Shown here in pieces: positions 3,089 through 17,504 of a stretch of DNA of 64,000 nucleotides. Within the stretch, counting starts at the first letter, position 1, and every line of letters starts with the position of its first letter. The notes below the pieces were generated by a model. It did not search any database. It was not told the origin of the DNA and saw only the letters and a program-made list of their open reading frames with translations. The DNA is taken from positions 11,422 through 75,421 of the IMG/VR virus record IMGVR_UViG_3300031552_000003, one strand, 5' to 3'. This DNA is from a virus. The translations under genes were made by a program, and so were the position numbers.

Positions 3089-4702
3089 ATGTGGAAAATA
3101 TCAGATGTAGAATCTCACAAAAAGGGGCTTTCCCCTGAGCAAAAAAAGAGGTGGGTATCTGTGGCTAATTCTATTTTAGCTAAATGCATAAAAGATGGAG
3201 GTTCTGATAGTAGTTGTGCCCCTACAGCTATAAGACAAGCCAATAGTGTGGTTGCAAATAATCAACTTTATGTAAATACATCAAATACAAATTACACTAT
3301 AAGAGAGGAGATACACCAAGGGCGCAAGCATATTGTTGTTCCTGTTGTGATGATGGTAGAAGGTGTGCACAATGGAAGTATGGGGCCTTTGTTGCATACT
3401 GCGGAAGAACTTGGCAAGTATCCGGAATCATGGAACGGTATTCCGGTAGTAATAAATCATCCTGTAAACAATGAAGGGGATAATATTTCGGCAAATTCTC
3501 CTGAAATAATTGATTCAGAAGTTACAGTTGGAAAAGTATATCATACACATTTAGTTGATACTAAATTAATGGCTGAAGCTTATTTGGACGAAGAAAAACT
3601 AAACAATATTTCTTCCAATGCTTTGTTGGCAATTATGAATGGAGATCCACTTGAAGTTAGTATAGGTGTTTTTAATGATACAAATATTGAGCCGGGACAA
3701 TGGCATAATGAAAAATATAACGCAGTAGCTATCAACCATAGACCAGACCATCTTGCTCTTTTGCCCGGGGGGATTGGTGCTTGTTCGTGGGAAGATGGTT
3801 GTGGTGTTCGTGTAAATCAAAAAAAGAAAGGAGGTAAAAATATGGTTGTTGATGATGCAGCACAAATTAATGAGGAGAAACAAAAACATATACAATCTAT
3901 TCTTGATGCTAATATGGATCAAGGATATAGGTATATGATAGAATCTGCTCAAAATATGTTGAATAAGATGGATTCGGAAAATGCTTATCATTATTTGGAA
4001 GATATGGATAATACTCATGTGATATATTCTAAAAGAGATAAAAATGATAGGAAAATGCTTAAACAATCTTATGAAATAAATGAAAGCGGGGTTCCGACAT
4101 TGATTAACAATCCAATTGAAGTAAGACAAAAAATAGATTATGTGCCTGTGGTTACTCACATGGTGAGAAGTAAATTTAATGTTAATAAAGGAGGTAAAGC
4201 AATGAATAATAAAGAAGAATGTGGGCAGTGCATGGAGAAAGTTGTAGCTATTATAAATAGTAATGCTGCTGGAATGACTGCTGAAAATCGTGAATGGCTT
4301 TTAACACAGGATGAGCCTGTTTTGGACATGCTTTTGTCCAAGAAACCTGTTGAAAAGAAAGTAGAAGTATCTGCAAAACTTACTTCGGATCAGATATTGG
4401 ATGCAATGTCTGCTGAGGATAAGGCTGCTCTTGCTTTTGGTAGAAAACAATTAGCTGATAAAAGAGCTAATATGATAAAAGGGATTCAGGACAATACTGA
4501 AAAAGATTTATGGCCGGAAGCTGTTTTAAATACCCTTAGTGAAGATTTTCTTGAAAAACTTTACAATTCTGTAAATGTTAATAATAATGATGATGTAGAA
4601 GCTAATTATGCCTTAAATGGCAATTCTCATCGTATGAATGTTAACTTTAATGATGAGGAAGCTTTGTATCCGGTTGGAGTAGAAATTGAAACTACAAAAT
4701 AA
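3089..4702 (+). CDS. Prohead protease/scaffold (DUF2213-like)
   Basis: WNGIPVVINHP, EVSIG, PDHLALL and GACSWEDGCG motifs; helical C-terminal part; strong SD AGGAGG. Confidence 0.8.
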   Translation: MWKISDVESHKKGLSPEQKKRWVSVANSILAKCIKDGGSDSSCAPTAIRQANSVVANNQLYVNTSNTNYTIREEIHQGRKHIVVPVVMMVEGVHNGSMGPLLHTAEELGKYPESWNGIPVVINHPVNNEGDNISANSPEIIDSEVTVGKVYHTHLVDTKLMAEAYLDEEKLNNISSNALLAIMNGDPLEVSIGVFNDTNIEPGQWHNEKYNAVAINHRPDHLALLPGGIGACSWEDGCGVRVNQKKKGGKNMVVDDAAQINEEKQKHIQSILDANMDQGYRYMIESAQNMLNKMDSENAYHYLEDMDNTHVIYSKRDKNDRKMLKQSYEINESGVPTLINNPIEVRQKIDYVPVVTHMVRSKFNVNKGGKAMNNKEECGQCMEKVVAIINSNAAGMTAENREWLLTQDEPVLDMLLSKKPVEKKVEVSAKLTSDQILDAMSAEDKAALAFGRKQLADKRANMIKGIQDNTEKDLWPEAVLNTLSEDFLEKLYNSVNVNNNDDVEANYALNGNSHRMNVNFNDEEALYPVGVEIETTK

Positions 4703-4717
4703 GAAAGGAGAGTAATT

Positions 4718-5233
4718 ATGAAATACAACACAATTAAATTAAAGAATTATTTACATATTCGTGAAGAATATACTGCGGCAGAAGCTATCCTTCCGGGGAT
4801 GTTGGTTGAATTAAACAGTTCCGGGACACTTCAAAAACATTCAGGGGCAGGACAAACAGCTCTTCCTATGTTTGCGATAGAAGATGCTTTACAAGGTAAA
4901 GCGATTGATGAAGCTTATGCAGCTTCAGATAAAGTACAAGTATGGGTCCCTACAAGGGGGGATATTGTATATGGTTTGCTTGCAGATGAGGAAACTGTTG
5001 TTATTGGTGATTTTGTTGAAAGTAATGGGGCTGGGTTTCTTCGTAAATTAGTCCGTACAAATGAGAGTTGGGAATCTGATGATGATGCCCCGGGTGGAGG
5101 GGATCATACTATTTATGATATGCACATTGTAGGACAAGTGCTTGAAGCTAAAGATTTATCTTCTCTTGAAGGTTCTGAATCCAGTGCAGCTACGGCCACA
5201 ACTACGCAGTACACTCAAATTAGAATAATGTAA
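4718..5233 (+). CDS. Head decoration/cement protein
   Basis: Between scaffold and capsid genes; AAEAILPGMLV beta-rich pattern. Confidence 0.7.
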   Translation: MKYNTIKLKNYLHIREEYTAAEAILPGMLVELNSSGTLQKHSGAGQTALPMFAIEDALQGKAIDEAYAASDKVQVWVPTRGDIVYGLLADEETVVIGDFVESNGAGFLRKLVRTNESWESDDDAPGGGDHTIYDMHIVGQVLEAKDLSSLEGSESSAATATTTQYTQIRIM

Positions 5234-5252
5234 TTAAAGAAAGGAGAAGAAA

Positions 5253-6356
5253 ATGAAAAACAACGTAAATGTTGATTTATTAGGTAATGGAGGCGGGAAT
5301 GGACAGGTTGCCAAGATGTTATTGTCTAATGGCAAGCTTAATCCCGGGACAATGCGGCCTTTTATTGGAAATGATGGTAATTCGTATATAACTTATTATA
5401 AGGGGGGTAATCCAAATAAACCGGCGAATTATGTCACACAGCGTATTAATTCAAATGCCACACTTCGTCGTGACGAATGGAAAGCGTTAGATGAATCTTT
5501 GCTTGAAGTAGCTCGTCAACGTCTTGGAGGGGTTCAGGATTTGATTGATAGCGGGCTTACCTATAATTTAGGTAATGCAATGGGTACTACAGTACTTGAA
5601 TATCATGATGTAAGCGATGCAATGGAAGCTGACCTTACTATGGATGGTATTACCCGTGGTAAAAATGATCGTCCTGATTTTAATTATCATTATTTACCTA
5701 TTCCCATAATTCATGTTGATTATGAAATCAATGCTCGTGAATTAGCGGCAAGTAGAAATCTTGGTAATCCTTTGGACACAATTGATGCTCAAACTGCTGC
5801 AAGAAAAGTAGCTGAAAAGTTAGAAGCGATGTTGTTTACCAATACTGATTATTCATTTGGTGAAAAAGGATCGAATGGACGAAATACTATCTATAGTTAT
5901 ATCAACCATCCTGACAGGAATTTGGTTACATTGGATATACATTGGGACGATTCTCCGATTACCGGGGCATTGATTGTACAGGATGTTCTTGCATTAAAAC
6001 AGGCATCTATTGCTGATTATCATTATGGCCCGTGGAAATTATACATCCCGACCAATTATGAAACAGTGCTTGATGGTGATTATGATTCTACTACACCTGG
6101 TACAACTATTCGTGAACGTATTATGAAAATTGCTGGTATTACCGGTATTAAAGTAGTAGATACTTTACCTGCGGACAATGTGCTTTTGGTACAAATGACG
6201 AGTGATGTTGTTCGTTTAGTCCGTGGCATGGGTATTCAGAATGTGGAATGGAAGTCAGAAGGCAATATGGTGACAAATTACAAAGTCATGACAATTCAGG
6301 TTCCGCAGATTCGCAGTGATTATAATAAACGGTCAGGAATTATCCATTTGGCTTAA
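5253..6356 (+). CDS. Major capsid protein (HK97 fold, encapsulin/linocin-like branch)
   Basis: 367 aa; TLRRDEWKALD, LPIPIIHVDY, YGPWKLY motifs; strong SD; synteny. Confidence 0.9.
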   Translation: MKNNVNVDLLGNGGGNGQVAKMLLSNGKLNPGTMRPFIGNDGNSYITYYKGGNPNKPANYVTQRINSNATLRRDEWKALDESLLEVARQRLGGVQDLIDSGLTYNLGNAMGTTVLEYHDVSDAMEADLTMDGITRGKNDRPDFNYHYLPIPIIHVDYEINARELAASRNLGNPLDTIDAQTAARKVAEKLEAMLFTNTDYSFGEKGSNGRNTIYSYINHPDRNLVTLDIHWDDSPITGALIVQDVLALKQASIADYHYGPWKLYIPTNYETVLDGDYDSTTPGTTIRERIMKIAGITGIKVVDTLPADNVLLVQMTSDVVRLVRGMGIQNVEWKSEGNMVTNYKVMTIQVPQIRSDYNKRSGIIHLA

Positions 6357-6400
6357 TTTAAAATTGACTAATCAGGTTAATTAATTTAAAAATTGAAAAA

Positions 6401-6772
6401 ATGATACGAAAAAATAAGGAAAATATTAATACACCATCTTCATTTAATTCTATTACAGAAGGCAGGATTCTTTGGAAAAATAATGGTGGGACTTTGAGGC
6501 TTAGAAAAAATAAAATTATTAAGCCGGGAGAAAAATTTAAAGCTTATCCACATGAAATTCCAAAAGCATTTCGGGATGTTATTATTGCATTAGAACCTGT
6601 TACAGATTTTAAAGAAGTTGAAATGAACATTCCTTCAATTACATATACATTGAAACCAAGTGATGAAAATGAAGGGTTTTTTGACATTTATAATTCTCAG
6701 AATAAAAAGATGAATGAACTTCCATTGGAAGAAGAAGTGGCTAAGCAGTTAATTAAAGATTTACAAAGTTAA
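6401..6772 (+). CDS. Hypothetical capsid-adjacent protein
   Basis: Directly follows the capsid gene; begins MIRK. Confidence 0.5.
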   Translation: MIRKNKENINTPSSFNSITEGRILWKNNGGTLRLRKNKIIKPGEKFKAYPHEIPKAFRDVIIALEPVTDFKEVEMNIPSITYTLKPSDENEGFFDIYNSQNKKMNELPLEEEVAKQLIKDLQS

Positions 6773-6776
6773 TTAT

Positions 6777-7499
6777 ATGTGGCATGTTCCTGAAATATGG
6801 AAGAATGGAGAGTGTTGGATATTAGGGGGAGGGCCCTCGTTAGTAGAACAATTTAATATTCCTAAAAATATTGTTCAAAGTGTTATCGAAGGAAAAACTA
6901 CCCCTAATGCTTATTCTCCGTACATGGAAGCTATACATGATAAGCATGTGATAGGGGTTAACATGTCTTATAAAATAGGAAATTGGATTGATTTTGTTTT
7001 TTTTGGGGATAGTGGGTTTTTTGTTAGAGAGAAAAACAACATATCAATTTTCCCAGGAATAAAAGTATCATGTCATCCACAAGTTGAAAAATGTCCTTGG
7101 GTGAAATATGTTGGAAGGGATACAAAGCACCCAAAAGGAATCAGTTCAAATCCTAAAATGGTTTCATGGAATGCAAATAGTGGTGCAGCATCAATAAGTT
7201 TAGCTGCACACCTTGGGGTAAAGAGAATTATTTTAGTAGGATTTGATATGAAATTAGATGATAGTGGTAAACAACATTGGCATGATTTGTATGGTAAGTT
7301 AAAAAACTTAAATATTAATGCTGGAAAAGAAAAAAGAAGGGGGCCAGGAGGATTGCCTTTTAACAGGCATTTATTAGGATTTTCTCAAATTGCAAAAGAT
7401 GCTAATAATATGGGAATTGAAATTTTAAATGCATCTATTAATAGTGCTATACAAGAATTTAAAAAAGTAAATGTAAAAGATTTAATTACTGTTAAATAA
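6777..7499 (+). CDS. Maf/DUF115 (MptE-like, sialyltransferase-like fold) putative glycosyltransferase
   Basis: ILGGGPSL, IGVN, NSGAASISLAAHLGVKRIILVGFDM motifs. Confidence 0.65.
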   Translation: MWHVPEIWKNGECWILGGGPSLVEQFNIPKNIVQSVIEGKTTPNAYSPYMEAIHDKHVIGVNMSYKIGNWIDFVFFGDSGFFVREKNNISIFPGIKVSCHPQVEKCPWVKYVGRDTKHPKGISSNPKMVSWNANSGAASISLAAHLGVKRIILVGFDMKLDDSGKQHWHDLYGKLKNLNINAGKEKRRGPGGLPFNRHLLGFSQIAKDANNMGIEILNASINSAIQEFKKVNVKDLITVK

Positions 7500-7511
7500 T
7501 TATAATCAATA

Positions 7512-8291
7512 ATGAATACAGTAAGGATTTGTGGAGGAGTTGGAAATCAATTGTTCCAGTATGCTTTTGGAAAATTTCAGGAATTTTTAGGAATATCGGT
7601 AGATTATGATATTTCGTGGTATAATAAACCACAAGTTCCACCAAGGTTATTTAGGTTATGTAAATATAAGATTGATTTAGATAAAAAATTAATTACATCT
7701 AAAGTATATAAAAGAACAATATTAGAAAAAGGGTTTAATTCTAAATCTATTATTGATATTGGGTATAAGTATAGTGGATATTGGCAATCTTCTTTTTATC
7801 ATACAAATATTTTTCCAGTATTAAAGAAAGAATATCAGGTTAAGGAAAATTTTTATACTAAGGAATTTTTAGATTTAAAAAGAAAAATCACACAAAGTAA
7901 TTCAGTTTCTTTGCATGTAAGAAGAGGGGATTATCTTGGAAAAAACAACCAATATGTTTTGCCATTAGAATACTATATTAATGCATTAAAGATATTATCT
8001 TTATTAAAAGGAAATTATGTTGTTTTTGTATTTAGTGATGATATTGCTTGGTGTAAGGAATATTTTCCTAATTTTTATTTTGTACAATTAGATGATTATC
8101 TTGAATTAGAATTGATGAGTTGTTGCAAACATAATATTATTGCAAATAGTACATTTAGTTGGTGGGCAGCATATTTAAATAATAATTCAAATAAAATTGT
8201 AATAGCTCCTAAAAAATGGGTAGCAAGGAAAAAAGATCAAGATTTGATAGATAGAAAAAGGCTTATTTTGCATGATTGGATAAAATTATAG
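7512..8291 (+). CDS. GT11 alpha-1,2-fucosyl/colitosyl-transferase
   Basis: GGVGNQLFQYA, GYWQS, HVRRGDY, NSTFSWWAAYL family motifs. Confidence 0.93.
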   Translation: MNTVRICGGVGNQLFQYAFGKFQEFLGISVDYDISWYNKPQVPPRLFRLCKYKIDLDKKLITSKVYKRTILEKGFNSKSIIDIGYKYSGYWQSSFYHTNIFPVLKKEYQVKENFYTKEFLDLKRKITQSNSVSLHVRRGDYLGKNNQYVLPLEYYINALKILSLLKGNYVVFVFSDDIAWCKEYFPNFYFVQLDDYLELELMSCCKHNIIANSTFSWWAAYLNNNSNKIVIAPKKWVARKKDQDLIDRKRLILHDWIKL

Positions 8292-8294
8292 TTT

Positions 8295-9041
8295 ATGTAT
8301 GATATTTTAGTCCCCGCGCATGAAAAAGATTTTACAAAATTAAGTTTTGTATATGATTCTATTATAAAAAATATTGAAGGATTTAAGGATATTTACCATA
8401 TAACAAATACAAAAGTTCCAAAATATTTAAGAATTTCAGGAATTAATTATTTTTTAGATGATGAAGTTATTGATTTTGATTTTAGTTTGTTTAGAAATAC
8501 GATAAAGAAAAGAACAGGATGGTATCGTCAACAGTTTGTTAAATTATTTCAAAATGTAACTGGGGATGAGTATTTGGTCACAGAAGCTGATAACATATAT
8601 AATAGGAAGATAAATATTATTGAAAACAATAAACCTGTTTTTTTCTTAGGAAAAGACCAAAATCATGCTCCATATTATAAGATAATGCAAAAGTTATTAG
8701 GCTATGGCAGGGAGTATAATTTTTCGTTTATCAATGAGATTATGTATATAAAACGGGAGTATGTAAAAGAACTTGTTGCTTTAACTAAATTAAATAAATA
8801 TGGGTTTTTTGAGTTATTTGCAAATGAATTAAATCGCACACAAGAAACCAGTGGTTGTTCTGATTATGATTTATATGGAAATTTTATTGCTAAATATCAT
8901 GAAGATGAATATTTATATAAACATGTTAAAACTGTTGTAACAGCTAAACATTCGGAATGGTCAGAAAGTGATATTAAAAAACAAATTGATTTATATAAGA
9001 ATACAGATAATATAATGATAAAATTGCATACATGGATTTAG
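8295..9041 (+). CDS. GT-A-like protein (DUF6492-like)
   Basis: GWYRQQFVKL, EAD (DxD-like), SDYDLYGNF; lies within glycan cluster. Confidence 0.55.
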   Translation: MYDILVPAHEKDFTKLSFVYDSIIKNIEGFKDIYHITNTKVPKYLRISGINYFLDDEVIDFDFSLFRNTIKKRTGWYRQQFVKLFQNVTGDEYLVTEADNIYNRKINIIENNKPVFFLGKDQNHAPYYKIMQKLLGYGREYNFSFINEIMYIKREYVKELVALTKLNKYGFFELFANELNRTQETSGCSDYDLYGNFIAKYHEDEYLYKHVKTVVTAKHSEWSESDIKKQIDLYKNTDNIMIKLHTWI

Positions 9042-9910
9042 TGATGTTTCATAGTGGAGAAAAGTTTCCTAATTATCTTGGAGATACTTTTAAACAAATA
9101 CGCATGTTTAACCCTGAATTAAACATTCATTTTTTAGTAGATTCTAAATTTTTGCAAAATAAAGTTTTTATTGATTATAATATAATTGTAGTTAATAAAG
9201 ATTTATATTATACAGATAAGATACATGAGTTAAATCTATTATATAAAAGAAAAGCAAATGATTTTTGGACAATTACAACTACACGTTTGGTTTATATTGA
9301 AAATTATATTGAAAAAAAGGATTTAACAAATGTATATCATTTTGAAAATGATGTATTATTATATCGTTCTTTAAAAGATTTTCATACTTTGTTTACTGTA
9401 AAATATCCATATTTAGCTATTACAGCAGGAAGTAAATATAAATATATGACAGGATTTATGTTTATTAAGAATTATATTGCTATTTCTTTAATGACAAGAT
9501 TTTTTATAGATTTATTAAGTACATATGGTAAAGAGAAAATTATTCGCAAATATAATTTAGGAATGATTCATGAAATGGGATTGATGGGGATTTATGGAAT
9601 TGAAAGAGGTTATATATTCATTACAAAACTGCCTACACTACCAAACTCACCAAATTTTGAAGATTTTAATTCTATTTTTGACCCGGCAGCGTGGGGACAA
9701 TTTGTAGGGGGTACACAAAATGAAGGCCCGGGGGCAAAACCTACAGATCATGATATTAGTCAAGTTTTAATAAAACATCCTGAATATAATGTGATTTGGG
9801 TTAAAGATATTGAAGGTAGAAAAATTCCTTTTTTTAAAATGGGTGATGAGCATATTCGAATTAATAATTTACATATACATTCAAAAAATTTACATTTATA
9901 TTTAAGCTAA
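9032..9910 (+). CDS. Putative GT-A fold glycosyltransferase
   Basis: HFENDVLLY, IFDPAAWGQFVGG, NLHIHSK; cluster context. Confidence 0.55.
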   Translation: MDLVMFHSGEKFPNYLGDTFKQIRMFNPELNIHFLVDSKFLQNKVFIDYNIIVVNKDLYYTDKIHELNLLYKRKANDFWTITTTRLVYIENYIEKKDLTNVYHFENDVLLYRSLKDFHTLFTVKYPYLAITAGSKYKYMTGFMFIKNYIAISLMTRFFIDLLSTYGKEKIIRKYNLGMIHEMGLMGIYGIERGYIFITKLPTLPNSPNFEDFNSIFDPAAWGQFVGGTQNEGPGAKPTDHDISQVLIKHPEYNVIWVKDIEGRKIPFFKMGDEHIRINNLHIHSKNLHLYLS

Positions 9911-10641
9911 TGTTTGATTTTATTCAAGGGGAGAAGTTTGAAAGTTTAGCAGATGGAAAAAACATTTTCTATTGTCATACGCATGATATTAAAGAATTTT
10001 TAAAAAAACATACAAATACTCCACCTTATATTTTAATTACGCATAATAGTGATAATTGCATTGATTTTAATGCCCCGGACAATGTTATTAAATGGTATGC
10101 ACAAAATGTAAATATAATTGACCCTAAAATAGAATCTTTACCTATTGGTCTTGAAAATGCTAAATGGTTGAAGCGTATTCCTAAGATTAAAAAAATGGAA
10201 GAGAAACTTTTACAACCAAGAAAATATAGGAATCTTTTATATGTAAATCATACAATAGCACATAATCCGGAACATAGATATAAACCATATCAAATATTTA
10301 AGAATAAAACATGGGTTACGATGCAATATGGGCATAATGGAAAAGATTTTGATACATATCTTGATAATTTGTATAATCATAATTTTACTATTTCTCCACA
10401 GGGAAATGGGATAGATTGTCCGCGAACCTGGGAATGTTTGTATATGGGGACGGTCCCAATTGAAAAAAGAAATATAAATAATCAATTTTATACAGACTTA
10501 CCAATATGTTTTGTAGATGATTGGGAGGAAGTAACTGAGGATTTTTTAGTATCAGAATACATAAGAATAAAAACTGGTAAATGGAATATGGATAAATTGA
10601 ATTTTGAATATTGGAAAAACAAAATATTTAACTACGTATGA
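9910..10641 (+). CDS. Exostosin/GT47-like glycosyltransferase
   Basis: ISPQGNGIDCPRTWECLYMGTVP motif. Confidence 0.7.
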   Translation: MFDFIQGEKFESLADGKNIFYCHTHDIKEFLKKHTNTPPYILITHNSDNCIDFNAPDNVIKWYAQNVNIIDPKIESLPIGLENAKWLKRIPKIKKMEEKLLQPRKYRNLLYVNHTIAHNPEHRYKPYQIFKNKTWVTMQYGHNGKDFDTYLDNLYNHNFTISPQGNGIDCPRTWECLYMGTVPIEKRNINNQFYTDLPICFVDDWEEVTEDFLVSEYIRIKTGKWNMDKLNFEYWKNKIFNYV

Positions 10642-11705
10642 AAATAATTGTTATTGGTGCAGGAATATTTGGGATTACAATAGCTTTGGAATTATCTAAA
10701 AAGTATAAGGATATTACTTTAGTGGATATGAATAATGATATTATGCAAAATGCATCAAAAGTAAATCATAATAGATTGCATTTCGGTTTCCATTATCCCA
10801 GAAGTAAAACAACTGCTGTGCAAAGTTTGGACGGGTATAAATTATTTCATGATTGTTTTAGTAATGCTATAACTTCTGATTTTGAAAATTATTATATGAT
10901 TGAAAAAAATAGTTATGTTAATAGTGAAAATTATGAACATTTTTGTGATGATTTACATTTGATATATAAAAAACAATCTCCTAAGTTAGATATAAATTTT
11001 GATAGGGTTGAATCTTCTTATTTAACAAATGAACCTATTTTTGATTATGATTTAATAAAGTTGAAATTAGATAAAGATTTGAAATGTTCAGGAATTAAAC
11101 TTCTTTTGAATAAGAGAATAACAAATAAAAAAGATTTAGAAGGATATGATGTAGTTATTAATACTACTTATTTTAATATTAATAAAATAAAAGGTATTTT
11201 AGATTTACCACAAACTAAATTAAAATTACAAACAGTAATCATTCCAATTTTTAAGTATAAAGCACATAAGGTGGGATTAACTATAATGGATGGAAAGTTT
11301 TGTAGTATTATGCCAAAAGGGTTTAATGATAACACATTTTTATTATACCATGTTAAAGAATCAGTTGTATATCAAACAGAAAATATGGAGATTCCGAAAA
11401 TATGGTATTATGGAAAAGAAATTATAAAAAATAATTTTTTGAAAAAGCATGTGTATGATAATGTTATAGTTAAACATCAAGTTAATAAAATAGTGAAGGA
11501 ATCTCAAAAATATTTTAGATTTATTGAAAATTGTGATTTTGTGGATTATTGGCAAACTGTAAGGGCTTTACCAATTAATGATGATGATGAGAGATTAAGT
11601 ATATTTGATATATTAGAACAAAATAATCAGAAAATTGTATCTGTATTGTCTGGCAAAATATCAACTTGTTTATTAATTGCAAATAATATATCTAAATTGA
11701 TATGA
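10638..11705 (+). CDS. FAD-dependent oxidoreductase (DAO-like)
   Basis: IGAGIFG dinucleotide-binding motif; NRLHFGFHYPRS; SGKIST. Confidence 0.85.
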   Translation: MKIIVIGAGIFGITIALELSKKYKDITLVDMNNDIMQNASKVNHNRLHFGFHYPRSKTTAVQSLDGYKLFHDCFSNAITSDFENYYMIEKNSYVNSENYEHFCDDLHLIYKKQSPKLDINFDRVESSYLTNEPIFDYDLIKLKLDKDLKCSGIKLLLNKRITNKKDLEGYDVVINTTYFNINKIKGILDLPQTKLKLQTVIIPIFKYKAHKVGLTIMDGKFCSIMPKGFNDNTFLLYHVKESVVYQTENMEIPKIWYYGKEIIKNNFLKKHVYDNVIVKHQVNKIVKESQKYFRFIENCDFVDYWQTVRALPINDDDERLSIFDILEQNNQKIVSVLSGKISTCLLIANNISKLI

Positions 11706-12451
11706 TGAATAGTATTTTATTTGGTAATGGGTATTGGGCTAATATAGTTAAAGAGAAGATTGTTAGTTTGACGAATTTAGTATTAATTGTGGATTCAAAA
11801 ACTGATATTAGTATTTGGAATAAGATTAATGTGGATATAGCTTTTGTTTGTTCATCAACTTCAAGTCATTATGATATAGTTAAAAAATGTTTGGATAACA
11901 ATATTAAATATATCTTTTGTACAAAACCATTTACAGGGGATTATAAGAAAGCTAAAGAATTATTTAGTATAGCAAATCGAAAAGGAATTTTTATTTTTAT
12001 TGATAATCTATTTTTATATAGAAAAGAAATTATTGATATTAAATTAAAAAATATACAAAATTTTGTTTTTCATTGGGAGAAACCACATAAAATAAACATG
12101 GAAAGCATATATGATAGTTTACTTTATCATGATTTATATTTATTGTTAAAATGGAGTAAGTCTAAAAAATGGAAGGTTATTTTTGTTGATAGATATGATG
12201 ATTCATTATATCTATACATGATTAATGAATATTATCAAACTTGTTATTTTGAGTATAATATAAGTGGAAGAAAAAATAAATGGATCATATTTGGTGATTT
12301 TGTTGTAAATTTAACAACAACAAAACAAGATTCATTAAAAGAGTGTATTATTGATATGTTGCAAGGTGATATAGATTTTGATTCAAATAAAAAGGTAACA
12401 TTAGATACTTTGAAATTGTTAAATTTTATTCAAAAAAACCATGATAAATGA
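11702..12451 (+). CDS. Gfo/Idh/MocA-family NAD(P) oxidoreductase
   Basis: GNGYWA; HYDIV; IFCTKP (EKP variant); HDLY. Confidence 0.7.
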   Translation: MMNSILFGNGYWANIVKEKIVSLTNLVLIVDSKTDISIWNKINVDIAFVCSSTSSHYDIVKKCLDNNIKYIFCTKPFTGDYKKAKELFSIANRKGIFIFIDNLFLYRKEIIDIKLKNIQNFVFHWEKPHKINMESIYDSLLYHDLYLLLKWSKSKKWKVIFVDRYDDSLYLYMINEYYQTCYFEYNISGRKNKWIIFGDFVVNLTTTKQDSLKECIIDMLQGDIDFDSNKKVTLDTLKLLNFIQKNHDK

Positions 12452-13022
12452 TAAATATGTTGATTTATTAAAAGATGAGTATAAGCAATCGTATTTATTA
12501 TATAAAAAAGGCTTATTAAAATTAGAAGCTTGGAGTTCTCATCAACCTTTGTTAATCCATGTTTTAAATACAATTAAAAGTGGGGATGTTTTAGAATTTG
12601 GTACAGGATATAATAGCACTCCAATAATGCATATCATTTGTGCATTTCAACAACGAAAATTGTTATCAATTGAAACAAATAAAAAATGGGTAGAAAAATC
12701 ATTGAAATGGAGAAATATTAATCATGTAATTGAATTAGTTTCTTCTAAAGAAATATTAAAACATTCTCTTTTTAGACATAAATTTTCAATAGCTTTTATT
12801 GATGGTGCCCCGGCGGAGGTTCGTCAACCTTTTTTAGAAAAAGTACAAGCAGATTATCTTATTGTACATGATACAGAATGTGTAGTAAGAGGAATTAAAA
12901 ATGTATATGGTTATGATTTTTCTATGTTTAAACATGTTTATCATTTTAAAAAAGATTCTACTATGACTACATTATTAAGTAATTTGGATAAAATTGATAA
13001 AGATTTATTAACTATATTTTAA
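12441..13022 (+). CDS. Class I SAM-dependent methyltransferase
   Basis: VLEFGTGYNST, AFIDG, IVHDTE motifs. Confidence 0.75.
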   Translation: MINDKYVDLLKDEYKQSYLLYKKGLLKLEAWSSHQPLLIHVLNTIKSGDVLEFGTGYNSTPIMHIICAFQQRKLLSIETNKKWVEKSLKWRNINHVIELVSSKEILKHSLFRHKFSIAFIDGAPAEVRQPFLEKVQADYLIVHDTECVVRGIKNVYGYDFSMFKHVYHFKKDSTMTTLLSNLDKIDKDLLTIF

Positions 13023-13027
13023 AAAGT

Positions 13028-14203
13028 ATGATTCCATTGATGCGAAATACATTTTTAAATGAATGTGATACTAAACAAGCTCTTGCAAAATTTATTATAG
13101 GAGCGGAAGTATTAAGCATGAATATTCAATGCAAGTCTTTTGAAATAGCTTTTGCTCAAAAGCAAAACAGGGATGAAGCCATTCTTTTTAATAGTGGAGG
13201 GAGTGCTAATTTAGCTTTGTTGCAATCTTTAAAGAATTTAGGTCGAATTAAAGAAGGGGATAAAATAGGGTTTTCTGCATTGACTTGGGCGACAAATGTG
13301 ATGCCTATCATACAAATGGGATTTGTTCCGGTGGCAATAGATTGTGAGGTGAATACATTAAATATAAGTCCAGAACAATTATTATCTGTTATAAAAAATA
13401 TAGATTTAAAAGTATTATTTCTTACAAATGTATTAGGGTTTATAGATAATATTAATGGTATTAAAAATATTTGTGATGAGTGGGGGATTATTTTACTTGA
13501 AGATAATTGTGAAGCATTAGGGACTGAGACTATATATGGAAAAACAGGTAATTTTGGAATTGCCTCTACTTTTTCTTTCTTTGTAGCTCACCATATGTCA
13601 ACTATTGAAGGGGGGATGGTTTGTACTGACAATGAAGAGTTAACCGAAATGTTAAAAATAGTACGTGCGAATGGGTGGGATAGAAATCTTTCAATTAAGC
13701 AACAAAGAAAATGGAGAGAAAAGTTTGATATAAAATCTGAATTTGATGCAAAATATACTTTTTATGATTTAGGATATAATTTAAGGCCTACTGAAATAAC
13801 AGGTTTTTTAGGTTGTTTACAATTGGAATGTTTGAATGATAGTATTAGTAAGCGAGAAATGAATTATTTATTAATTGAAGATACAATAAAGGAAAATAAT
13901 GATTTTATAAATATTAAGCATGATCATATTGTTCAATTATCACCATTTGCAATTCCAATAATTTGTAAAACCCCTGAATTAAAAAAGAAATATTTATCCA
14001 AATGTTTTGATTCGGGAATTGAAACCAGGCCAATGATTGCTGGAAACATGCAAAATCAACCATTCTATAAAAAATATGTAAAACAAACGTATAATTTACC
14101 AAACAGTGATTTTTTACATAATAATAGTTTTTATTGTGGAAACTATCCTGAGATGACAAAAGAAGATTTAAAAATAATAAAAGATGTTTTAATCAAAAAC
14201 TAA
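13028..14203 (+). CDS. colD: DegT/DnrJ-family PLP enzyme, ColD-like GDP-4-keto-6-deoxymannose 3-dehydratase
   Basis: NSGGSANL, LEDNCEALG, SFFVAHHMSTIEGG (His where aminotransferases have the Schiff-base Lys), RANGWDRNL, GYNLRP; no Fe-S Cys cluster. Confidence 0.78.
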   Translation: MIPLMRNTFLNECDTKQALAKFIIGAEVLSMNIQCKSFEIAFAQKQNRDEAILFNSGGSANLALLQSLKNLGRIKEGDKIGFSALTWATNVMPIIQMGFVPVAIDCEVNTLNISPEQLLSVIKNIDLKVLFLTNVLGFIDNINGIKNICDEWGIILLEDNCEALGTETIYGKTGNFGIASTFSFFVAHHMSTIEGGMVCTDNEELTEMLKIVRANGWDRNLSIKQQRKWREKFDIKSEFDAKYTFYDLGYNLRPTEITGFLGCLQLECLNDSISKREMNYLLIEDTIKENNDFINIKHDHIVQLSPFAIPIICKTPELKKKYLSKCFDSGIETRPMIAGNMQNQPFYKKYVKQTYNLPNSDFLHNNSFYCGNYPEMTKEDLKIIKDVLIKN

Positions 14204-14207
14204 GAGT

Positions 14208-15146
14208 ATGAATATTGATAGTAAAATATTAGTAACAGGTTGTCAGGGAATGACTGGTTGGGCAGTTATAAGAGAATTGAATAGGCAGGGATATGTAAAT
14301 ATTTATTGTGTTGACAGAGTTGATTGTGATTTATTAGATCAAAAGAGAGTATTAACTCTTTTTGAAAAAATAAGACCAGAATATGTTTTTCATATAGCAG
14401 GAAAAGTAGGAAGTATTTATGCAAATGATACTCAAAGTGGGGATTTTATTTATGAAAATCTTGTAATGCAATGTAATGTTATTGAATCTGCAAAATTATA
14501 CAATGTAACGAAACTTTTATTTTGTGGTTCCGCTTGTGTTTATCCAAATTCTGATTCTCAACCTATTAAAGAAGAAGATTTATTAACCGGGCCACTTGAA
14601 AAAACAAATATAGGTTATGCTATTGCTAAAATAGCAGGTGTCATAATGTGTCAAATGTATAATAAGCAACATAGATGTAATTTTATTTCTGCTATACCTG
14701 CAAATATTTATGGGATAGGAGATAACTTTAATTTAACTTCGGCGCATGTGGTACCTGGTTTAATTAATAAATTTCATGAAGCAAAGACAAGTAAAATTTC
14801 AAGTGTGGAAGTTTGGGGGACGGGGGAAGCTTGTAGAGAATTTATTTATGTGGATGACCTTGCGAAAGGTTTAGTTCATATAATGAATAATTATGATAAT
14901 TCAGAAGTTATTAATATAGGCACGGGTATTAGTATTCAGATTAAAGATATTGTTAGAATTATAAAAGATGTTGTAGGATACACAGGTGAAATAATTTATA
15001 ATAATAATTTTGAAGGTGTCCGGGATCGTTGTTTAGATATAACTAAAATAAAAAGTCTTGGATGGGAAGCTAAGACTGATTTTAGAGAAGGTATAAAAAA
15101 TGTTTATGATTGGTATGTTAATAATTATACTTTTTTAAGAAAATGA
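14208..15146 (+). CDS. fcl: GDP-L-fucose synthase / ColC-like epimerase-reductase
   Basis: TGCQGMTG, GSACVYP, YAIAK (YxxxK), PANIYG, HVVPGLI, WGTG..REFIYVDD. Confidence 0.9.
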   Translation: MNIDSKILVTGCQGMTGWAVIRELNRQGYVNIYCVDRVDCDLLDQKRVLTLFEKIRPEYVFHIAGKVGSIYANDTQSGDFIYENLVMQCNVIESAKLYNVTKLLFCGSACVYPNSDSQPIKEEDLLTGPLEKTNIGYAIAKIAGVIMCQMYNKQHRCNFISAIPANIYGIGDNFNLTSAHVVPGLINKFHEAKTSKISSVEVWGTGEACREFIYVDDLAKGLVHIMNNYDNSEVINIGTGISIQIKDIVRIIKDVVGYTGEIIYNNNFEGVRDRCLDITKIKSLGWEAKTDFREGIKNVYDWYVNNYTFLRK

Positions 15147-15820
15147 GCACAATAAAAACTATAGTATTAGTATTAAGAAGTGGAAAGGATTTTTCCATGA
15201 GTGATGTAGAATTGATTAATAGACATATTAATATTAAATGGCAATCAGAAGAAAAATTTCGTGTAATTTGTTTATGGGATAAGGCTACCCAACATTATAA
15301 ATTAGGCAATTTGGAATTGATTCCATTGAAAAATAATTACCCGGGCACGTGGTCTCGTATGCAATTATATAGTCCTGAAATGGAACAATATCGTCCTTTT
15401 TTATATATAGACTTGGATACAGCAATTATTACTTCTATTAAAAATATTTTTGATTTGGTAAAAGATGAATCAAAATTTATTACACTTGAAGATTTTTGGC
15501 AAAAGAGACAATTAGCTACAGGCTTAGTTTGGTTTCCAAATAATTCACAAAAAATAAAACATGTGTGGGATATATGGATAAAAGAACACCAAACAAGAGG
15601 GTCAAGAATGGATATGTTTTTACGTAAACATATTGAAGCAGATATTTTTTGGCAGCAATTAACAGATTTAATTGTTGATTTTAAACCAAAAAACAGACAA
15701 CTTGTAACTAAATTGCCAAAAGATGTTAATTTGGTATGTTTTCATGGTAAACCACGGGTACATCAAGCTATAAATATTGCATGGGTAAATGATTATGTAA
15801 ATTATGAATTATGCGTGTAA
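15143..15820 (+). CDS. GT-A (GT8-like) glycosyltransferase
   Basis: LYIDLDT (DxD) and VCFHGKPR motifs. Confidence 0.75.
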   Translation: MSTIKTIVLVLRSGKDFSMSDVELINRHINIKWQSEEKFRVICLWDKATQHYKLGNLELIPLKNNYPGTWSRMQLYSPEMEQYRPFLYIDLDTAIITSIKNIFDLVKDESKFITLEDFWQKRQLATGLVWFPNNSQKIKHVWDIWIKEHQTRGSRMDMFLRKHIEADIFWQQLTDLIVDFKPKNRQLVTKLPKDVNLVCFHGKPRVHQAINIAWVNDYVNYELCV

Positions 15821-16425
15821 GTATTATAATCCCATATAAAGAAGATAGAGGATGGTTAAAAAAAGCTGTTAAGAGTGTCCCAAAGAAGAATGTGCAGCTT
15901 ATCCTTAGTCAGGGAGAAGGAAATTGGCCTCAAAATTTTAATAAAGCATTATCACAAGCTGATGGTGATTTAATAAAATTTTTGCATGAAGATGATATGC
16001 TTACACCAAATGCAATTGAAAGTTATATTAAGGCATTTAGAAGCCCGTCATTTAAAGATATTCATTTTGCACATGGGAATGCTTGGGAAATATTTATGTG
16101 CTCAACACGCCCTCCTAAATTGTATATACCAAGAATTGTATTGCCCACATTTGAAAATTTATTAATGCGAAATACTATACATAGTGCTTCTTTGATTTAC
16201 AGAAGGGAAGTATTTGAAAAAATTGGGAATTTAAATGAATCAGAAAATGTATATTCTTTTGAAGAGTATGAATTTAATTTACGTTGTTTAAAAGGAAATT
16301 TGAATATTGGTTATATTAACATACCTTTGGCATATTATCGCCGTCATCCTAAACAAATTATAAGAACTTGTAATATTTCTGAAAGAAAGCAAAACAGGGC
16401 TGAACTTTTAAAAAAATACATATGA
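15811..16425 (+). CDS. GT2 glycosyltransferase
   Basis: VSIIIP, FLHEDD, RREVFEKIG, EEYEF, YYRRH. Confidence 0.9.
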   Translation: MRVSIIIPYKEDRGWLKKAVKSVPKKNVQLILSQGEGNWPQNFNKALSQADGDLIKFLHEDDMLTPNAIESYIKAFRSPSFKDIHFAHGNAWEIFMCSTRPPKLYIPRIVLPTFENLLMRNTIHSASLIYRREVFEKIGNLNESENVYSFEEYEFNLRCLKGNLNIGYINIPLAYYRRHPKQIIRTCNISERKQNRAELLKKYI

Positions 16426-17120
16426 TTAAAGATAATTCAAATATTCCAATTTTTATTACAGGGGCACAGCGTTCTGGAACAACAATCATTGCAAAGATTA
16501 TAGGCATGTGCGATGTTTTTACAGGGGATATATCAGAGATGATGGAAAATGGTTCTATTAAAGAATTAAATACAATATATATTGGTGGAGTTTTAGGAAT
16601 TGATGAAAGGGGGCAATTTCCGTTACCAGATACAAAAGAATTATTAATTCCAATGAATTGGAAAAAATGTGTCCATGATATTTTAGTTGAAGAAGGATAT
16701 GATAAAAATAAGATATGGATGTTTAAAAGCCATGCTATTTGTCAATTATGGCCTATATGGAATCATGCATATCCAAATGCTAAATGGATTATAGTACGCA
16801 GGCGTACTGGTGATATTATTTATTCATGTATGAAAACAGCATATATGAATGCTTTTAAAGATAAGGTAATTCAAAAAGCAGTAGGTGCAAATAATGAACA
16901 GGAAGGTTGGCTTTGGTGGGTACGGCAACATGAAAAATTATTTGTTGAAATGATTGAAGCTGGGTTAAATTGTAAAGTTATTTGGCCTGAGCGTATGGTA
17001 AATGGTGATTATTCCCAGATATATGAGATGCTTGAATGGTTAGGTTTGAAATGGGATGATTCAATTGTAAAAACTATTGATCCGCTTTTATGGAACAGCA
17101 GACAAAAGGAAAGGAAATAA
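16422..17120 (+). CDS. PAPS-dependent sulfotransferase
   Basis: FITGAQRSGTT PSB loop; PNAKWIIVRR...S. Confidence 0.8.
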   Translation: MIKDNSNIPIFITGAQRSGTTIIAKIIGMCDVFTGDISEMMENGSIKELNTIYIGGVLGIDERGQFPLPDTKELLIPMNWKKCVHDILVEEGYDKNKIWMFKSHAICQLWPIWNHAYPNAKWIIVRRRTGDIIYSCMKTAYMNAFKDKVIQKAVGANNEQEGWLWWVRQHEKLFVEMIEAGLNCKVIWPERMVNGDYSQIYEMLEWLGLKWDDSIVKTIDPLLWNSRQKERK

Positions 17121-17123
17121 GAT

Positions 17124-17504
17124 ATGGCAGTAAGGGTGACAGCTGATGAGGTAAAAGAAATAATGGATGGTGTTACATCATCTGATCCTACTATAGAAAT
17201 ATTTATTACAGCAGCAAGTGCTGTAATAGATAATGTATTTACAGGGGATACTGTAATAGGGACAACTTTATTAAAGGAGCTTGAAAGATGGCTTACGGCA
17301 CACATGTTAGCTTCTACTCTTTTTAGAATGTCTGTACAAGAAAAACTTGGCGAAGCTGAAGTAAAATATATGGGAAAATGGGGAGAAAACCTCGCGTCTA
17401 CACCATATGGTCAAATGTTAAAAGTGCTTGATACAACCGGTAAAATAAGCCAATTGGGGAAATCTTCTGCTACTATGTATGCTATAACAAGTTTTGATGA
17501 TTAA
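17124..17504 (+). CDS. Head-tail adaptor (connector)
   Basis: WLTAHML and LASTPYGQ motifs; synteny. Confidence 0.75.
   Translation: MAVRVTADEVKEIMDGVTSSDPTIEIFITAASAVIDNVFTGDTVIGTTLLKELERWLTAHMLASTLFRMSVQEKLGEAEVKYMGKWGENLASTPYGQMLKVLDTTGKISQLGKSSATMYAITSFDD

Follow-up and report, generated by a model that had tools for sequence, protein, structure and literature searches.

A ColD-type 3-dehydratase and an Fcl-family reductase among the head genes of a salt-marsh phage: a candidate second half of a GDP-L-colitose pathway

Introduction

Two adjoining genes among the head genes of a salt-marsh phage, one ColD-like and one Fcl-like and both intact, raise the question of which nucleotide sugar they make and where that sugar is placed. 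The phage genome is 75,421 bp long (75.4 kb; CheckV 100%), and the window analysed is a stretch of 64,000 nucleotides of it. A sequence-only reading of the window had proposed that the two genes branch GDP-L-colitose synthesis off the fucose pathway of the host. Colitose has been documented in few O-antigens, namely those of enterobacteria, Vibrio, and Yersinia. The chemistry of Fcl, when applied to a 3-deoxy substrate, yields colitose, which is 3-deoxy-fucose.

Results

The pair lies in an island between capsid and adaptor genes

The pair resides in an island of genes for glycan enzymes that is bordered by the major capsid gene on the left and a head-tail adaptor gene on the right (Table 1). 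The island encodes, among others, an MptE/sialyltransferase-like protein, a GT11 glycosyltransferase, a DUF6492 protein, an RXYLT1-like protein, an FAD oxidoreductase, a Gfo/Idh/MocA protein, a methyltransferase, ColD, the reductase, a PHROG glycosyltransferase, a GT2 glycosyltransferase, and a sulfotransferase. The intergenic gaps range from -11 to +12 nt. The capsid-to-adaptor position of the island, which lies within the late head operon, is kept across about 40 relatives, and its synteny is seen in the relative L003/L096. The island is hypervariable, and the ColD/reductase pair is an accessory module of this phage family. In related phages the same island encodes E1-type enzymes.

Table 1. 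Features of the capsid-to-adaptor region
Feature	Coordinates	Strand	Remarks
Major capsid protein, HK97-type	5253..6356	+	Matches to DUF6260, Linocin_M18, Major_capside and phage major capsid protein; left flank of the variable slot
Small ORF	6401-6772		Between the major capsid gene and the island start at 6777
Glycan-enzyme island	6777..17120	+	14 tightly packed genes for soluble enzymes; contains the ColD/reductase pair
GT11 glycosyltransferase, candidate alpha-1,2-fucosyl/colitosyl-transferase	7512..8291	+	259 aa; complete
ColD-type PMP-dependent nucleotide-sugar 3-dehydratase	13028..14203	+	391 aa; catalytic His188 codon 13589-13591
Fcl-family GDP-sugar 3,5-epimerase/4-reductase, candidate GDP-L-colitose synthase (ColC function)	14208..15146	+	312 aa
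Head-tail adaptor/connector-like gene, DUF4054	17124..17504	+	Right border of the island; anchor gene in 41 related contigs

The arrangement of the pair is repeated in two relatives, L002 and L003. The L003 pair is syntenic and 72% identical. The dN/dS values between the window and L003 are about 0.13 and 0.06 for the pair, which are rough because dS is near saturation. Synteny, identity, and dN/dS together support the view that the pair is functional.

The absence of gmd, manB, and manC, which had been reported for the window, extends to the complete genome. The Fcl-like gene is the sole match to PF16363 in the 75,421 bp, PF00483 has zero matches, and tblastn of the genome with E. coli Gmd, ManB, ManC, and Gmm also returned zero matches. 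GDP-4-keto-6-deoxymannose made by the host is therefore the only evident substrate.

No transmembrane segment is present in any island protein, and the island encodes no membrane protein, flippase, polymerase, or lipid-priming (polyprenyl-phosphate) transferase. These features bear on where the glycan is attached. The pathway may operate as proposed while its glycan decorates the envelope of the host cell or is attached to a secreted product, for instance in superinfection exclusion or receptor masking, and not to the virion. O-antigen modification encoded by phages is well known, and a comparable cassette in cyanophages, described below, is found among auxiliary genes and not head genes. However, an envelope destination is rather doubtful for an island that has no membrane-associated machinery and is retained inside the late head operon. 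The position also recalls mycobacteriophages with capsid-adjacent glycosyltransferases, in which glycosylation of the virion has been reported. In both cases genes for sugar handling form part of the structural module, beside the capsid gene. Those mycobacteriophages possess one or two transferases and use host sugar nucleotides, whereas the present phage has a 10-kb island with predicted synthesis of a rare sugar nucleotide and with sulfo- and methyl-transferases.

The dehydratase is of the ColD type

The product of the first gene belongs to the Pfam family DegT_DnrJ_EryC1 (PF01041, E 1.3e-54) of fold-type I enzymes resembling aspartate aminotransferase, and its translation includes ...STFSFFVAHHMSTIEGG.... 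Its best solved relative is ColD of E. coli O55:H7 (WbdK; PDB 2gms and 3b8x), with which it shares fold and length. The alignment with 2gms runs end to end over residues 20-388 with an E value of 4e-55 and scores 190 bits, versus 151 bits for the E1 structure 3bb8. This full-length alignment, a check that the sequence-only reading had suggested, superimposes the catalytic residues. Residues 183-196 read SFFVAHHMSTIEGG, and A187-H188-H189 lie opposite S187-H188-H189 of ColD. The deposited ColD mutants H188N and H188K point to the first histidine as the catalytic residue. A histidine at the position of the Schiff-base lysine, as originally noticed, is thus borne out, His188 being aligned with the catalytic His188 of the E. 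coli enzyme. All 84 members of the clade have His at this position, whereas neighbouring DegT aminotransferases have Lys.

E1 enzymes (RfbH/AscC/DdhC; CDP-6-deoxy-L-threo-D-glycero-4-hexulose-3-dehydrase) are likewise His-type DegT 3-dehydratases, and JGI annotations file homologues of the phage enzyme among them. Three of the four [2Fe-2S] cysteines of E1 are, however, missing in the alignment. In place of Cys252, Cys254, and Cys262 the phage enzyme has R219, L221, and W229, in agreement with the earlier failure to see an Fe-S motif, and E. coli ColD shares the first two of these residues. Given this lack of the motif, the enzyme would need no E3 partner, and no E3-type reductase was found to go with it. 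The phage enzyme is also about 40 aa shorter than E1. Its best NCBIfam match is RfbH (NF011936), at 226 bits versus a cut-off of 423, and the true RfbH proteins that accompany its homologues in bacterial genomes reach 706-764 bits.

The His-enzymes are united in the tree (support 100) and then split into two clades. The E1 clade includes proteins above the RfbH cut-off and the true E1 of the same bacterial genomes. The ColD-side clade (SH-aLRT 92 in a quick tree) includes E. coli ColD and the phage dehydratase, a grouping whose support is moderate because E. coli ColD sits on a long branch (1.84). The two enzymes share 31-33% identity and differ in Ala187 of the phage enzyme versus Ser187 of ColD. 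The phage enzyme falls in a separate clade that is known from sequences alone and is highly conserved, its members from many phyla sharing 55-79% identity. Taken together, the data support the assignment of the product as a predicted His-type 3-dehydratase of the ColD kind, neither E1 nor aminotransferase. An aminotransferase is ruled out by the histidine in place of lysine, and E1 by the missing Fe-S motif, the score below the cut-off, and the different clade.

The substrate is a separate matter from the enzyme type, and the genomic context points to the GDP-linked product of Gmd. A dehydratase acting on a CDP-, dTDP-, or UDP-4-keto-6-deoxyhexose would instead lead to a different 3,6-dideoxy or 3-deoxy sugar. 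The clade is automatically annotated as CDP-6-deoxy-D-xylo-4-hexulose-3-dehydrase, and a substrate of this kind would fit the RfbH match, the E1-type enzymes in the same island of related phages, and the low identity to the only characterised ColD. Such a substrate is nonetheless very unlikely: the score lies far under the RfbH cut-off, the Fe-S cysteines and an E3-type reductase are both absent, and the constant partners of the clade in bacteria are those of GDP-sugar metabolism rather than rfbF/rfbG or rmlA/rmlB.

The reductase is an Fcl-family enzyme

The observation that the PLP enzyme is directly followed by an Fcl-like reductase holds. The second gene begins 4 nt past the ColD stop, and its own stop overlaps the start of the following gene. 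The product matches E. coli GDP-L-fucose synthase (1e6u) over the full length with an E value of 3e-75 and Pfam Epimerase with 3e-59. Like ColC (E. coli O55; Y. pseudotuberculosis) and Fcl/GFS, it is an extended SDR, and all five catalytic residues (S107, C109, Y136, K140, and H179) are present. Its direct attachment to a ColD gene is a further likeness to ColC of E. coli O55.

By identity the reductase is slightly nearer to Fcl, with 38% to the E. coli enzyme versus 35.5% to E. coli ColC. Its best NCBIfam match is Fcl (NF047922), at 369.4 bits, below the equivalog cut-off of 500. The phage reductase is absent from the clade (support 100) that unites E. coli ColC with three Elusimicrobia-type proteins and is separated by a long branch. 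The free tree weakly places the phage reductase with true Fcl proteins; together with its phage relatives it forms a separate long-branch group. Bacterial genomes with two Fcl-family genes carry, next to ColD, a paralogue distinct from true Fcl, and joining of the phage reductase to this ColD-adjacent clade is not rejected by the AU test (p-AU 0.51). The phage protein has the Fcl-type residue at three of the five columns that separate Fcl from the ColD-adjacent paralogue, and these columns are not diagnostic since E. coli ColC itself has the Fcl state at three of the five. By sequence, ColC and Fcl identities cannot be told apart for this protein. The earlier designation of a ColD and ColC-like pair is retained for its first member, on the grounds of His188, the absent Fe-S motif, and the tree, and can be kept only tentatively for its second.

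The reductase could accordingly be read as an ordinary Fcl that raises GDP-L-fucose for GT11 from the Gmd product of the host, with ColD feeding the same enzyme, to give a mixed Fuc/Col pool, or serving another transferase. The identities, the top NCBIfam model, the free tree, and the residues at the three columns are all compatible with this, as are the many relatives that have GT11 without ColD. We consider it unlikely. The bit score is short of the Fcl cut-off, and placement in the ColD-adjacent clade is allowed by the AU test. The phage also encodes no other reductase that could take up the ColD product, and this one starts 4 nt after the ColD gene and is conserved together with it in L003. 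In the set of relatives, an intact close homologue of the reductase is never seen without a 3-dehydratase.

A GT11 transferase is encoded upstream

The GT11 gene at 7512 was correctly recognised in the sequence-only reading. Its product matches Pfam Glyco_transf_11 (PF01531) with an E value of 2e-27 and 96.7 bits, against a gathering score of 23.9. The family motifs, aligned with the GT11 of E. coli O55, are intact and comprise the N-terminal GGxGNQxFQY, HxRRGDY, and SxFSWW. The protein is 33.6% identical to the E. coli O55 GT11, annotated as alpha-1,2-fucosyltransferase, which we take to be WbgN, and 33-39% identical to the GT11 proteins of bacterial cassettes. At least 15 related phages carry GT11 without ColD, so the native donor in the phage family may be fucose. 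The specific link between GT11 and colitose in this phage is weakened by these relatives. WbgN and FUT2 each accept both GDP-Col and GDP-Fuc (PMC11987014).

Counterparts occur in bacteria and cyanophages

The bacterial context was surveyed at 80 loci containing an orthologue of the phage dehydratase with 55-66% identity. An Fcl-family gene lies within 400 bp of the orthologue at 65 of the 80 loci, and GT11 does so at 28 (38 when the entire locus is considered). A true Gmd, defined by at least 48% identity to E. coli Gmd, is encoded within 10 kb at 26 of the 80, often in the contiguous order gmd, fcl-like, colD. The usual neighbours are thus Fcl-like, Gmd, and GT11, not rfbF/rfbG or rmlA/rmlB. 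The fcl-like/colD-like/GT11 cassette is found in hundreds of bacteria of many phyla and in several phage lineages.

Four consecutive genes of the cyanophage ACG-2014f encode a Gmd (65% to E. coli), an Fcl-like protein, a His-type ColD-like protein, and a GT11, and a cassette with its own gmd recurs in 54 or more Synechococcus phage genomes that have been deposited. The S-CAM7 copy of the ColD-like gene is annotated as a putative 3-dehydrase. The pair is also found in an uncultured 642-kb phage and several IMG/VR contigs. The clusters of the Synechococcus phages ACG-2014f, S-CAM7, and S-B05 (Kyanoviridae) resemble that of the window in the His-type ColD-like gene adjoining an Fcl-like gene and GT11, with a methyltransferase, more glycosyltransferases, and a sulfotransferase close by. 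Unlike the present phage, they have their own gmd. In E. coli O55:H7, too, ColD lies beside an Fcl-family reductase with GT11 within the cluster; the window enzyme differs from that ColD in being encoded by a phage that lacks gmd, manB, and manC. Between the window and the cyanophages, identity is 29% for ColD and 44% for the reductase, and the cyanophage cluster is surrounded by auxiliary metabolic genes in a T4-like genome and does not lie between capsid and adaptor.

That fcl-like, colD-like, GT11, and gmd genes are linked in both bacteria and cyanophages speaks for GDP chemistry and a GDP-colitose route. In the window the order is ColD followed by the reductase, with GT11 5 kb upstream. 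The bacterial cassette is ordered differently, and the module was therefore not acquired whole.

The statement that no phage had been described doing this is too strong, since the Synechococcus phages ACG-2014f and S-CAM7 possess gmd, fcl-like, ColD-like, and GT11. A search of a limited collection of literature, on colitose in phages, viral genomes, and cyanophages and on 3-dehydrases in cyanophages, turned up no account of a phage-encoded route to colitose. The same gene set is nevertheless already present in published cyanophage genomes and is not described there.

A proposed pathway

The two genes probably constitute the phage-borne second half of the GDP-L-colitose pathway, with the product used for a phage-made glycan. 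The host would make GDP-mannose, and a host Gmd, assumed since gmd, manB, and manC are all missing from the phage, would convert it to GDP-4-keto-6-deoxy-D-mannose. The predicted Fe-S-free, PMP-dependent dehydratase, with His188 as acid/base, would then remove the hydroxyl at C3, yielding GDP-4-keto-3,6-dideoxy-D-mannose, with PMP regenerated from glutamate. In this step the enzyme type follows from the sequence and the substrate from the context. The reductase may subsequently epimerise C5 (Cys109 and His179) and reduce C4 (Ser107, Tyr136, and Lys140) with NAD(P)H, forming GDP-L-colitose. The diversion of the host Gmd product into a 3,6-dideoxyhexose, as first suggested, is favoured by the missing phage gmd, manB, and manC and by the cassette linkage; the reductase being nearer to E. 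coli Fcl than to E. coli ColC counts against it.

GT11 is the likeliest user of GDP-L-colitose. As GT11 enzymes accept GDP-Fuc and GDP-Col, the donor pool, shifted by the pair, would set the added sugar. The glycan is most likely assembled directly on a virion protein, since the island is soluble, has no flippase, polymerase, or lipid-priming transferase, and lies in a late structural operon. This is the least certain step.

Discussion

The pair is a real and sensible addition to a known pathway, in an interesting setting. If it makes GDP-colitose, the phage completes a rare-sugar pathway from a host intermediate, which amounts to a 3,6-dideoxyhexose pathway split between host and virus. As the cassette is shared by many bacterial phyla and by several lineages of phages, colitose or a close analogue may be far commoner than documented. 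The cultured cyanophages that carry the cassette offer a direct experimental handle.

The position in the head operon suggests that the virion glycans are more elaborate than those of the mycobacteriophage systems with one or two transferases. A broader picture can be put forward tentatively. Virions of this phage family may carry a diversifying glycan that the head-operon island, with its sulfo- and methyl-transferases, produces in the cytoplasm. One lineage might cap this glycan with colitose in place of fucose by way of the host Gmd product, and sister lineages might have acquired a dehydratase of the E1 type that leads to a different dideoxy sugar. If true, a 3,6-dideoxyhexose would for the first time be known from a virus particle, and such a dideoxy cap would alter recognition by lectins, fucosidases, or grazers.

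Genomic setting

The 75,421-bp IMG/VR virus record, of which the window spans bases 11422–75421, has a completeness rating of 100% and a GC content of ~29%. The two ends of the full genome contig (1–13 and 75409–75421) share a 13-bp direct repeat, ATAGGGTAAAGGG, which agrees with a closed, circular assembly; the IMG/VR record is labelled linear. DNA of the stretch is contained in salt-marsh metagenome runs from 2019. AGGAG ribosome-binding sites accompany the decoration and capsid genes (region 4698–5252), whereas the genes of the glycan-enzyme island have A/T-rich leaders without one. This contrast is consistent with strongly and weakly expressed classes of genes and with a host resembling Bacteroidota.

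Features of the island and its flanks (window positions)
Feature	Position	Strand	Remarks
Major capsid gene, HK97-type	5253–6356		Left flank of island
Glycan-enzyme island	6777–17120	+	14 tightly packed genes; intergenic gaps −11 to +12 nt
GT11, complete	7512–8291		
Predicted ColD-type 3-dehydratase, 391 aa	13028–14203		DegT family, Pfam E 1.3e-54
Fcl-family SDR	14208–15146		Starts 4 nt after dehydratase ORF; E. coli GFS E 3e-75
DUF4054 head-tail gene	start 17124		Right flank of island
Tail terminator gene	18736		After DUF4054 gene

The dehydratase

The DegT-family protein is predicted, with good support, to be a ColD-type, Fe–S-free, PMP-dependent 3-dehydratase. Its closest solved structures in a structure–sequence comparison are those of E. 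coli O55:H7 ColD (E 4e-55), with an alignment spanning residues 20–388. The protein scores 190 bits against ColD, 151 against E1 (the RfbH-type, Fe–S 3-dehydrase) and ~70 against perosamine synthase. Within the motif SFFVAHHMSTIEGG (residues 183–196), A187-H188-H189 aligns onto S187-H188-H189 of ColD, placing a histidine at the position of the Schiff-base lysine as the sequence-only reading had noticed. The deposited ColD mutants H188N and H188K single out the first histidine as the catalytic residue. The 3-dehydratase mechanism involves a histidine acting as acid/base, enamine hydrolysis, and regeneration of PMP from glutamate (PMC8987622).

The top NCBIfam match is RfbH, the E1 type, at 226 bits versus a cut-off of 423; ColD has no model in NCBIfam. 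True RfbH proteins, scoring 706–764 bits, are found in three bacterial genomes that also carry a close homologue of the phage dehydratase, and the two types are thus distinct paralogues. Aligned with six E1 proteins, the phage protein has R219, L221, and W229 where E1 has cysteines (~252, 254, and 262), bearing out the reported lack of an Fe–S motif. R219 and L221 are identical to the E. coli ColD residues at these positions, and the sole E1 cysteine kept is that of the shared EDNCE motif.

In a maximum-likelihood tree of 56 rows (quick search), the His-type enzymes form a clade (support 100) distinct from the Lys-type aminotransferases. This clade divides in two, one part holding the E1 proteins and the other lying on the ColD side (SH-aLRT 92). 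The latter contains E. coli ColD, the cyanophage-type proteins, and the window protein, which belongs to a large tight clade whose 84 members all have histidine at the catalytic position. The tree gives moderate support for grouping the dehydratase with ColD, E. coli ColD itself forming a long branch.

Bacterial homologues and predicted substrate

The dehydratase has thousands of homologues, the best 120 of which are 63–79% identical and mostly labelled CDP-...-3-dehydrase by automatic pipelines (JGI names). When one genome per species was scanned, at least 572 loci in many phyla proved to encode such a homologue. A conserved cassette of fcl-like, colD-like, and GT11 genes, often with gmd, occurs in Bacteroidota, Verrucomicrobiota, Planctomycetota, Pseudomonadota, Elusimicrobiota, and Patescibacteria, its ColD being 55–66% identical to that of the phage. 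Among the best 80 of the at least 572 bacterial loci, 65 have an Fcl-family gene no more than 400 bp from the colD-like gene. A GT11 gene is present at this distance in 28 loci, and within 10 kb in 38. In 26 of the 80, a true Gmd (at least 48% identity to E. coli Gmd) is encoded within 10 kb, frequently in a contiguous run of gmd, fcl-like, colD-like, and GT11 genes. The constant neighbours are GDP-6-deoxyhexose genes, and gene context therefore supports GDP-4-keto-6-deoxy-D-mannose as the predicted substrate and disfavours the CDP route of the automatic labels, or a dTDP route. The GT11 proteins of the bacterial cassettes are closer to the GT11 of the E. coli O55 O-antigen cluster, which we take to be WbgN, a characterised alpha-1,2-colitosyltransferase, than to the phage GT11.

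The partner reductase

An Fcl-family reductase directly follows the dehydratase, as proposed. It contains all of Ser107, Cys109, Tyr136, Lys140, and His179 of E. coli GDP-L-fucose synthase (GFS, Fcl), and judged by these residues it should perform both epimerisation and reduction. Its score against the NCBIfam Fcl equivalog, 369 bits, is under the cut-off of 500.

The description of the reductase as "ColC-like" reflects a function predicted from its position beside ColD, not its sequence, which shares 38% identity with E. coli Fcl versus 35.5% with E. coli O55 ColC. The reductase tree contains three groups: a classical ColC clade (E. coli and three others on a long branch, support 100), the true Fcl proteins, and a large clade of paralogues encoded next to ColD. 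Where a bacterial genome carries two Fcl-family genes, one falls in each of the latter two groups. The phage reductase falls outside the classical ColC clade; with two phage relatives it forms a long branch weakly placed with true Fcl proteins, and constraining the phage reductases into the ColD-adjacent clade carries no cost (lnL +0.26, p-AU 0.51). The five columns that distinguish Fcl from the adjacent paralogue have no diagnostic value, since three of the Fcl states are also present in E. coli ColC. Fcl-type catalysis on a 3-deoxy substrate yields GDP-L-colitose, so it is reasonable to predict a ColC function from adjacency.

Other phages with the cassette

The sequence-only reading knew of no phage described with such a route. 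The literature searched does not connect colitose or 3-dehydratases with any pathway encoded by a phage, but the genes are public in Synechococcus phages (at least 54 genomes; ACG-2014f, S-CAM7, S-B05) and in LR756502.1, and PHROGs families already exist for both enzymes. In ACG-2014f_Syn7803C7 (NC_047712.1, 156070–159983), the order is gmd, fcl-like, ColD-like, GT11; the first two products are 65% and 49% identical to those of E. coli, and the ColD-like protein has the motif GHHMTTIEGG. Downstream lie a methyltransferase, further glycosyltransferases, and a sulfotransferase, all with generic annotation. The gene content of this cultured-phage cluster echoes the window island. The cluster, however, brings its own gmd, whereas gmd, manB, and manC were found neither in the window, as first read, nor elsewhere in the window phage's genome. 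In S-CAM7 the dehydratase bears the annotation "putative CDP-4-keto-6-deoxy-D-glucose-3-dehydrase". The 642-kb genome of an uncultured huge phage, LR756502.1, encodes an fcl-like protein and then a ColD-like protein 58% identical to the window's (7071–9170 of locus L173). An additional E1-length DegT gene lies 6 kb downstream of that pair. The viral context is interesting and partly precedented. The genes themselves are already public; what is new is the colitose reading, the predicted reliance on host Gmd, and the capsid-adjacent placement.

The island across related phages and its proposed role

One phage relative (L003/L096) has a capsid protein that is 86% identical and an island with the same order. 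Its ColD and reductase are each 72% identical to those of the window, with dN/dS of ~0.13 and ~0.06, respectively, at near-saturated synonymous sites. It lacks a trio of FAD-oxidoreductase, Gfo-Idh-MocA, and methyltransferase genes, in place of which lies ~840 bp. In the window the trio is just upstream of ColD (10638–13022) and looks like a separate accessory module.

The capsid–adaptor slot forms a hypervariable glycan island in at least 77 IMG/VR contigs that carry a related capsid gene. Its length ranges from 16 bp to ~9.3 kb, and is ~10.8 kb in the window (6356–17124). A small ORF (6401–6772), an MptE/sialyltransferase-like gene, and a sulfotransferase form a recurrent core, while GT11, GT2, and other inner transferases vary or are swapped. 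GT11 occurs without ColD in at least 15 relatives, and among these contigs only the window phage and L003/L096 carry the ColD pair. An E1-type dehydratase with the histidine and a WGRDCYC...C Fe–S motif replaces the ColD type in three related phages (L105:6587–7873, L106:15064–16134, and L009:6319–7575). 3-Deoxygenation has thus entered this phage family on at least two occasions, and the patchiness of the pair within a variable slot marks it as an accessory module within an island that is diversifying.

The island proteins contain no transmembrane segments, and no flippase, polymerase, or priming transferase is found among the island genes. These absences and the island's location in the head operon make a virion protein the favoured target, which would be glycosylated directly. 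Of the mechanisms considered, a GDP-colitose route has the best support, and we consider it fairly probable. Both GDP-Fuc and GDP-Col can serve GT11 enzymes as donors (PMC11987014), and the phage GT11 is complete at the place first reported. In the simplest reading, the GT11 of this family would draw on host GDP-fucose, and the gain of ColD and the reductase would shift the donor pool towards colitose.
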